Source: Tatlockia sp. (GTDB lineage: Bacteria; Pseudomonadota; Gammaproteobacteria; Legionellales; Legionellaceae). Taken from it: 54,105 nucleotides of DNA. Positions 67-641 of this stretch are shown piece after piece; the stretch's first letter is position 1, and every line of letters begins with the position of its first letter. The DNA lies in assembly GCA_013697645.1 (NCBI GenBank), contig JACCWL010000322.1, positions 1 to 54,105 on the forward strand, given 5' to 3'. The notes below the pieces were generated by a model, which searched no databases, was not told the origin of the DNA, and saw only the letters and a list, made by a program, of their open reading frames with translations. The position numbers and the translations under genes were made by a program.

Positions 67-243
67 ATGGAAAATGATCGAGCAAGACCTTTAGCATACA
101 CGCTAGCCAAAGAACTGAATTCCAAAGAATTAGATGAGGTATCTGGTGGGGAAGGAGGGATTCATATTTGTATGTTGCCAACCCAGTATGAGACCAATAA
201 ATCAACTTTAGATGCTACAGCCGATTATAGAGTTGATTGGTAA
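67..243 (+). CDS. RiPP (graspetide) precursor peptide 1 with double-glycine leader
   Basis: ATG at 67 (in frame with ORF 55..243). 28-aa leader MENDRARPLAYTLAKELNSKELDEVSGG ends in a typical ELxxVxGG C39 cleavage motif; 30-aa core EGGIHICMLPTQYETNKSTLDATADYRVDW. Lies upstream of an ATP-grasp ligase and a C39 exporter. Confidence 0.9.
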   Translation: MENDRARPLAYTLAKELNSKELDEVSGGEGGIHICMLPTQYETNKSTLDATADYRVDW

Positions 244-464
244 TATTTCTATTAAGTTAATTGGTCGTTATAGAGCTCTAAAGAAAGATTTTGCCAACTA
301 AAAATGGAAATAGGTTTGTAAAATTCAGTGATGTGTCGGCACAGGTTTAACCCCGCAATTTTGAAAAAGAAAAATTTGAGATAAAAAGGAATTATCTGAT
401 TAAGGAACTTAGATGTTATAGGAAGTAGCAGATTAAGTAATAATAAAAAAAATTGGAGAAAAAA

Positions 465-641
465 ATGGAAAATAGTCAAGCAAGAATTCTAGCCTACAAT
501 TTAGCCAAAGAATTAAATCCTAAAGAATTAGATGAGGTATCCGGAGGTGCAGGATGGATAACGACTAGCCACACTTGTTTTGTTCCAACGGGACCATTCA
601 GCAACCTAGATGGTATAGTTGACGTCTCGGTTGATTGGTAA
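465..641 (+). CDS. RiPP (graspetide) precursor peptide 2 with double-glycine leader
   Basis: ATG at 465 with TGGAG RBS at 454-458. Leader MENSQARILAYNLAKELNPKELDEVSGG is 23/28 identical to precursor 1; core AGWITTSHTCFVPTGPFSNLDGIVDVSVDW. Confidence 0.9.
   Translation: MENSQARILAYNLAKELNPKELDEVSGGAGWITTSHTCFVPTGPFSNLDGIVDVSVDW

Follow-up and report, generated by a model that had tools for sequence, protein, structure and literature searches.

The window examined here, a 54,105-nt stretch from Tatlockia sp. (Legionellaceae; assembly GCA_013697645.1, contig JACCWL010000322.1, positions 1 to 54,105 of the forward strand), opens with a graspetide cluster in which two tandem precursor genes (67-243 and 465-641, both on the forward strand, as are the other genes and elements of the cluster described below) each encode 58 amino acids. 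Both precursors consist of a 28-residue double-glycine leader (67-150 and 465-548) followed by a 30-residue core (151-240 and 549-638), a core length that presumes cleavage after the first GG, with core 1 having a second GG three residues further on. The two genes were duplicated together with their upstream element (spacing 398 nt); the leaders are identical at 23 of 28 positions and the cores at 9 of 30 (G2, I4, S18, L20, D21, D25, V28, D29, and W30). Core 1 presents C7, T11, and T15, and core 2 presents T6, C10, and T14, as candidate donors facing the acceptors D21, D25, and D29, and the single cysteine of each core is encoded by TGT (C7 at 169-171, C10 at 576-578). All of these features had been pointed out in an earlier reading made from the sequence alone (the sequence-only reading), and all are present as described; it had also picked out C-x-x-P-T in both cores, which is there but is no motif of its own, as Pro directly before the next donor is frequent in the family (27/233 and 44/233 cores at the two columns). 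The precursors are followed by an ATP-grasp graspetide synthetase gene (730-1830; 366 amino acids), whose product matches TIGR04187, TIGR04185, and TIGR04184 (E 1e-52 to 1e-54, in each case short of the curated cut-off) and has AMdnB (9e-40), 5ig9, 5ig8, and CdnC (3e-33) as its best PDB matches, so that the precursors have beside them a ligase of the microviridin-synthetase clade. We propose that each core is closed into a nested three-ring ladder by two Thr-Asp esters and one natural Cys-Asp thioester that persists in the final product, a reading to which we assign a probability of about 0.6.

The cluster is a member of the known group 8 graspetides, with which it shares the leader family (R-x-L-A-Y ... 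GG), the donor/acceptor spacing, and an NHLM-type transporter, and precursor 1 scores 16.4 bits against TIGR01847 (cut-off 15.7); the group numbering is reportedly that of Lee 2020. Both window peptides appear verbatim, labeled Tatlockia sp., as group 8 graspetides in rows 4542 and 4551 of supplement file 2 of PMC13097080 (Carter 2026), a listing that also assigns their synthetase to group 8, and Legionella precursors are cluster 75/group 8 in Makarova 2022 (PMC8939145). The class definitions consulted name only Ser, Thr, and Lys as graspetide donors, among them the introduction of PMC13097080, which also terms thioesters non-native, whereas each window core has Cys in one slot. In the passages of PMC8939145 considered here, precursor cysteines are discussed only as thioether donors for radical S-adenosylmethionine enzymes, and its table lists a Legionella adelaidensis precursor with an outer-slot Cys without a group match, an all-Thr sibling as gr_08, and a second sibling with Cys-free slots that is likewise without a match. 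No natural graspetide thioester is reported in the full-text literature searched, which took in a minority of the subscription papers, and Cys in group 8 may have been commented on before. Ester-forming synthetases do form amide and thioester links efficiently when the precursor is substituted or engineered (PMC12291112); the sequence-only reading, which had called a thioester unusual for a graspetide, thus holds for its natural occurrence but not for its enzymatic formation, and it is the former, not the enzyme-made thioester as such, that is the novelty here.

A single-sequence search with precursor 2 returned only itself, making a profile search necessary, and locus searches by DNA pattern found three genome loci and two metagenome loci, the named relatives being Legionellaceae. 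The synthetase occurs in 96 of 203 Legionellaceae genomes (three further genomes were unscorable), and matches were found in five genomes of a 401-genome class-wide sample. With a leader-only profile, 118 synthetase loci yielded 132 precursors with a cleavage site and six without, which were dropped, and 20 loci had none; an 80-sequence alignment as query then brought in 52 and 150 further proteins, the 150 being the best of 476 that passed E 0.001. The result is a set of 293 distinct cores. A full D/E-x3-D/E-x3-D/E triad is present in 233 of them, 57 have two of the acceptors, two have one, and one has none; 89 of the 233 were found through enzyme and leader only, with no selection on core sequence, and 144 through the profile, which favors the consensus. 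That consensus, T-x3-T-x3-T-G ... D-x3-D-x3-D, follows the leader in the arrangement expected of graspetide precursors. The set also contains a two-ring subfamily, P-T-x3-T-G ... D-x3-D, in which the outer donor and the last Asp are lost together (L014, L017, L023, L027, L035, L036, L039, L043, L045, and others) and whose genes often stand in tandem with a three-ring precursor ahead of one shared enzyme. Beside the synthetases of L085, L090, and L091 lie precursor-like open reading frames in which the leader begins intact but both the GG and an acidic core are missing; they look like decayed or frame-shifted precursors.

The two window cores alone are only modest evidence for a Cys donor, because shuffling (100,000 times per core, with D21, D25, D29, and W30 fixed) put Cys on a full Ser/Thr/Cys triad at rates of 1.9% and 3.9%, and it is the family that carries the case. 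When the donor block of the 233 full-triad cores was placed with Cys masked, the outer slot held Thr in 150, Ser in 49, Cys in 32, Ala in one, and Gly in one; the middle slot Thr in 191, Ser in 29, Cys in eight, Arg in two, Val in two, and Lys in one; and the inner slot Thr in 125, Ser in 106, Cys in one, and Asn in one. Summed over the i/i+4/i+8 slots, this gives 650 Thr/Ser, 41 Cys, and eight other residues, and Cys is the sole frequent alternative to Thr and Ser: it fills 41 of the 49 donor slots without Ser or Thr as against 18 of 1,992 flanking slots, and the same masking applied to each of 17 other residues gave donor-slot enrichment for none. The locus-derived cores (n = 89) behave alike, with Cys in 12/18 non-Ser/Thr donor slots versus 10/776 flanking slots, or 9/15 versus 9/725 when this genome is left out. 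The interchange of Cys, Thr, and Ser among homologs that the sequence-only reading had anticipated is therefore strongly borne out. The acceptor opposite each slot follows the same pattern, the facing Asp/Glu being kept under Cys in 42/42 cases, under Ser/Thr in 750/778, and under other residues in 22/59 across the 293 cores, and in 13/13, 315/334, and 18/46, respectively, in the locus-only cores; the 60 incomplete cores in this count were placed blind to Cys but not to acceptors, guided by the acceptor columns and by a prior on loop length. Slot enrichment and retention of the facing Asp are sequence evidence, and on that footing they support the predicted Cys-Asp thioester and lend strong comparative support to a Cys donor as a family-wide, repeatedly evolved feature.

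A slot Cys is carried by 39 of the 233 full-triad cores, and a disulfide was rejected as its purpose because most of these cores (30/39) have no off-slot Cys as a partner. We also dropped, as a Cys-specific signal, the avoidance of a C-terminal Asp by cores with an outer Cys (1/32, compared with 45/150 for an outer Thr), since cores with an outer Ser do likewise (4/49) and lineage confounds the comparison.

Repeated origin is indicated by the enzymes. In a quick tree of 68 synthetases, the nine slot-Cys clusters need six changes, at least four of them forced by starred branches, and a single clade for the Cys-bearing clusters was rejected (p-AU of the approximately unbiased test, 2.8e-6, with one long branch left out). 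The window enzyme clusters with those of L001 and L013 (support 87), and each of the five precursors in this clade has a single slot Cys, which three place on the outer rung and two on the middle one. No enzyme column tracked the Cys label in 997 tests (best p 2e-4), which fits a generally promiscuous synthetase. The tree of the precursors themselves (46 columns; 25 changes, of which only five are forced) is too poorly resolved for counting origins.

Co-loss of donors and acceptors and covariation between the strands independently favor a nested hairpin. The odds ratios for co-loss are 80 for the outer donor with the last Asp, 125 for the middle pair, and 38 for the inner donor with the first Asp, compared with 0-6.8 off this diagonal. 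In the interstitial columns (172 effective sequences), four of the top five cross-strand covarying pairs lie on the antiparallel diagonal, whose mean of 0.029 (p about 0.005) contrasts with 0.005 (p 0.22) for the parallel one. The inner loop has a length of 7-8 in 212/233 cores, with offsets of 5-9 in the family, and an AlphaFold model of core 2 has strands at C10-T14 and D21-D25. The nested pairing that the sequence-only reading had put forward (T15-D21, T11-D25, and C7-D29 in core 1; T14-D21, C10-D25, and T6-D29 in core 2) is supported on all these counts, the AlphaFold hairpin being of low confidence. The alignment thereby offers a predicted map of the rings in group 8. The study in which the group was first expressed did not establish how they are connected: Gra-7A and Gra-7B of Legionella pneumophila each underwent three dehydrations there, and their rings were left unmapped owing to low yield (PMC9576775).

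The ladder invites comparison with the stem-loop graspetides fuscimiditide and amycolimiditide of group 13, in which Thr-Asp esters are spaced equally by four residues on both stems (bioRxiv 2023.06.21.545981), as the window cores are, and in which fuscimiditide links T3-D22 and T7-D18 (PMC12291112). The fuscimiditide synthetase ThfB forms thioesters on engineered precursors (PMC12291112), whereas the thioester in the window is predicted to be natural. Group 13 comes from Actinomycetota and the window cluster from Gammaproteobacteria, and fuscimiditide-type loops span 10-12 residues with an aspartimide site, as against predicted loops of five and six residues in the two window cores. The TIGR04188 methyltransferase of group 13 is absent from the cluster and no protein of the genome exceeds its cut-off (best 72.6 bits versus 380, on another contig); with these short loops, this led us to reject a graspimiditide assignment, so that of the fuscimiditide-like topology suggested by the sequence-only reading the ladder and its equal spacing are likely to be shared, while the class is not. 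A type A lantibiotic was likewise rejected, the leader giving PF04604 only a weak match (18.8 bits against a cut-off of 21.7) and no lanthionine synthetase being found among the nine proteins scanned in 1-9.7 kb, to which that search was confined. OEP6-1 of group 6 is described as a stem-loop with three nested cross-links (PMC12291112), like the ladder predicted here, a likeness by description only and across groups. For a natural ribosomal Cys thioester the precedent is the agr autoinducing peptides, whose rare Ser lactones are also a precedent for Cys/Ser interchange (PMC8251862). Those peptides form one ring at the C-terminal carboxyl by means of the AgrB protease without ATP, whereas the window would use a predicted ATP-grasp ligase and Asp side chains for three rings, and no AgrB was found among the cluster proteins, where it was looked for.

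As in the chemistry established for the family, the synthetase would bind the leader and use ATP to phosphorylate an Asp side chain, giving an acyl phosphate that is attacked by a side-chain nucleophile (PMC13097080), and the beta-hairpin would be closed rung by rung, with the slot thiol attacking as a hydroxyl would. The products would be T15-D21 and T11-D25 esters with a C7-D29 thioester in core 1, and T14-D21 and T6-D29 esters with a C10-D25 thioester in core 2. Calculated monoisotopic masses after loss of three waters are 3372.55 for core 1 and 3166.49 for core 2, compared with 3390.57 and 3184.50 after loss of two. One promiscuous synthetase would suffice for Thr, Ser, and Cys donors, with no special enzyme required. 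Reports that some graspetides need the inner link before later ones can form (PMC12291112) fit the way in which Cys becomes scarcer going inward (32 outer, 8 middle, 1 inner). Leader removal at the GG and export together with HlyD are the predicted tasks of the C39 transporter, and the thioester would survive in the exported product.

Several observations weigh against this proposal. Thioesters are labile, the inner slot seldom holds Cys (1/233), the consensus-favoring profile supplied the larger part of the cores, and the p-values are overstated because the sequences are related. Seven cores without the first Asp keep the inner donor and nine without the last Asp keep the outer donor; the 22 two-ring cores that underlie the outer co-loss come partly from one lineage; and the co-loss is in part register-dependent, since the acceptor columns and loop-length prior entered the placement of incomplete cores. 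The AlphaFold hairpin has a predicted local distance difference test score (pLDDT) of 62 and a predicted template modeling score (pTM) of 0.22. Among characterized systems, Myx ATP-grasp enzymes refuse Cys (PMC12848669), and the slots of Gra-7A, whose rings are among those left unmapped, are all Thr when read by eye (PMC9576775).

That a thioester is formed at least briefly is very probable in our view. It is possible, if unlikely, that hydrolysis, aspartimide formation, or acyl transfer to the N-terminal amine, a Lys, or an adjacent Thr resolves the bond, leaving a free Cys plus an amide, an ester, or a free acid; such a peptide would be under identical selection for Cys, there is precedent both in engineered ThfA (PMC12291112) and in the S-to-N rearrangement that a cryptic thiolactone undergoes in autoinducing peptides of clostridia (PMC8251862), and potential acceptors exist in K17 of the core 1 loop and in T9, which adjoins C10 in core 2. 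Fast shifts of this kind, however, need an N-terminal Cys, and the outer-slot Cys lies three to eight residues past the cut in 32/32 cores, a setting that resembles staphylococcal peptides with persistent thiolactones (PMC8251862); moreover, 23 of the 41 slot cysteines have no adjacent Ser, Thr, or Lys. If Cys were instead a tolerated look-alike of Ser and its rung stayed open, the product would have only two rings, and its free thiol would lie opposite an unlinked Asp. A single base change separates TGT and TGC from the Ser codons found at the slots (TCN and AGY), Cys is most frequent at the outer rung, the very rung lost outright in many two-ring relatives, and the lack of an enzyme column tracking the Cys label would suit this case as well. 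A mere look-alike should, though, also put Cys in other Ser/Thr-rich columns and Ala in the slots, and neither is seen: Cys is scarce at such columns (three beside 108 Ser/Thr in one and one beside 97 in another), Ala occurs once, never, and never at the outer, middle, and inner slots, and Ala, Gly, and Asn, which are equally near Ser or Thr, are almost missing there. Where the outer rung is truly lost, the Asp is kept in 4/30 cores, against 32/32 under Cys, and we regard an open rung as rather improbable.

The links, the Cys link included, could also be arranged in another topology, parallel or interlocked and cage-like, in the manner of the microviridins and of rosaritide, another three-ester graspetide (PMC13097080), and the connectivity of group 8 goes unreported in PMC9576775. 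An off-diagonal association, between the inner donor and the last acceptor (odds ratio 6.8, p 0.003), points the same way. Set against the nested co-loss, the antiparallel covariation, the nearly fixed inner loop, and the equal four-residue spacing on both stems that is the hallmark of the fuscimiditide and amycolimiditide ladders (bioRxiv 2023.06.21.545981), such an arrangement seems very unlikely, and the nested ladder with one thioester per core is the structure we prefer.

If this structure is correct, about one in six of the full-triad group 8 cores collected here (39/233) would be natural side-chain thioester macrocycles of several origins, in a peptide system found in nearly half of the Legionellaceae genomes. 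The definition of the graspetide class would then widen beyond Ser, Thr, and Lys donors, mining rules that score only these residues would misjudge ring number, and natural enzyme-substrate pairs tuned for thioester formation would become available, of use in ligation chemistry. A further and doubtful step is that the thioester is a working warhead, with a rigid hairpin holding a reactive acyl group that this lineage retains once per peptide while shifting its rung; it would acylate a target protein or open after export as a thiol- or pH-sensitive switch; complement C3 and the thioester adhesins are known thioester warheads.

The synthetase gene is followed by one for a HEAT/armadillo-like repeat protein (1841-2878; 345 amino acids) with a conserved C-P-x-Y-H-C motif and what looks, by eye, like a signal peptide. 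This is a conserved partner gene, found after the synthetase in 72/79 enzyme loci, with some of the misses being locus ends. Its structure model has a pLDDT of 94.7, and fold searches gave generic armadillo/HEAT matches only (best E 1.6e-3; best Z 11.7 with a root mean square deviation of 4.0 over 172 aligned residues), the first 100 residues being barely covered. It is likely a putative periplasmic binding, immunity, or receptor protein; Gra-7 was modified from three genes without it (PMC9576775). The export genes encode a HlyD-type periplasmic adaptor (3191-4201) and a peptidase-containing ABC transporter with C39 and ABC domains (4198-6291; TIGR03796 at E 7.5e-141, below cut-off), giving the combination of double-glycine leader and NHLM-type peptidase-transporter that characterizes group 8. 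A GNAT-methyltransferase gene at 6467-7717 was considered as an N-acetylating tailoring enzyme and rejected, as it is not beside the cluster in those relatives (four of five) that have a match. Between the HEAT-repeat gene and hlyD, a GC-rich inverted repeat with 22-nt arms (2961-3033) is probably a dispersed repeat, because many similar copies occur.

Upstream of each precursor lies an element with sense-strand GGA motifs, that of precursor 1 (1-66) being cut by the contig start and having motifs at -60, -43, and -10, and that of precursor 2 (380-464) at -77, -61, -44, and -10. GGA is enriched upstream of 128 precursors (ATGGA 63 versus 13 shuffled), and 17/128 precursors (0.5 when shuffled) have the arrangement A/C-GGA, ATGGA, and GGA at the ribosome site, compared with 2/2,087 long open reading frames of this genome, figures that rest on mononucleotide shuffles and related loci. 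CsrA recognizes A(N)GGA (PMC5338858, PMC4066749), and this genome has six CsrA matches; the motifs suggest that the precursors are likely CsrA-repressed. A 13-bp RNA hairpin followed by a U-run (661-692; z = -2.8 for 640-735), between the precursors and the enzyme gene, is likely an attenuator or stabilizer; a terminator scan did not call it, and that promoter/terminator scan yielded hits at chance level. Divergent regulators stand upstream of the precursors in relatives, with helix-turn-helix and S24 repressors in L001 and L002, and upstream in L003 and at 275-2394 of contig C287 of this genome there is an unclassified 214-224-residue protein with a kinase-like or receiver gene. These regulators are compatible with a signaling role, and a stationary-phase signal or competition peptide would fit the GGA motifs, the divergent regulators, and the secreted partner protein.

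Contig C287 also has a third precursor near its end (3053-3229, equivalent to L006 1501-1677) with C7, T11, T15, D21, D25, D29, and Y30 and the same upstream element. The last five bases of that contig equal the first five of the window and fall within the repeated element, so that the array likely comprises three genes, with a presumed join between the contigs. A public contig is identical to the window over 74-1167 (0 differences) and is possibly from the source sample, hence not independent. A second group 8 cluster lies on contig C252 of the same genome (5415-8255), with three precursors, a synthetase that is 46% identical, and a HEAT protein, no transporter being seen on that contig. One of its cores is the sole one among the 233 with four cysteines (C2, C11, C20, and C29), all off the donor slots, a pattern that suggests disulfides on top of three esters.
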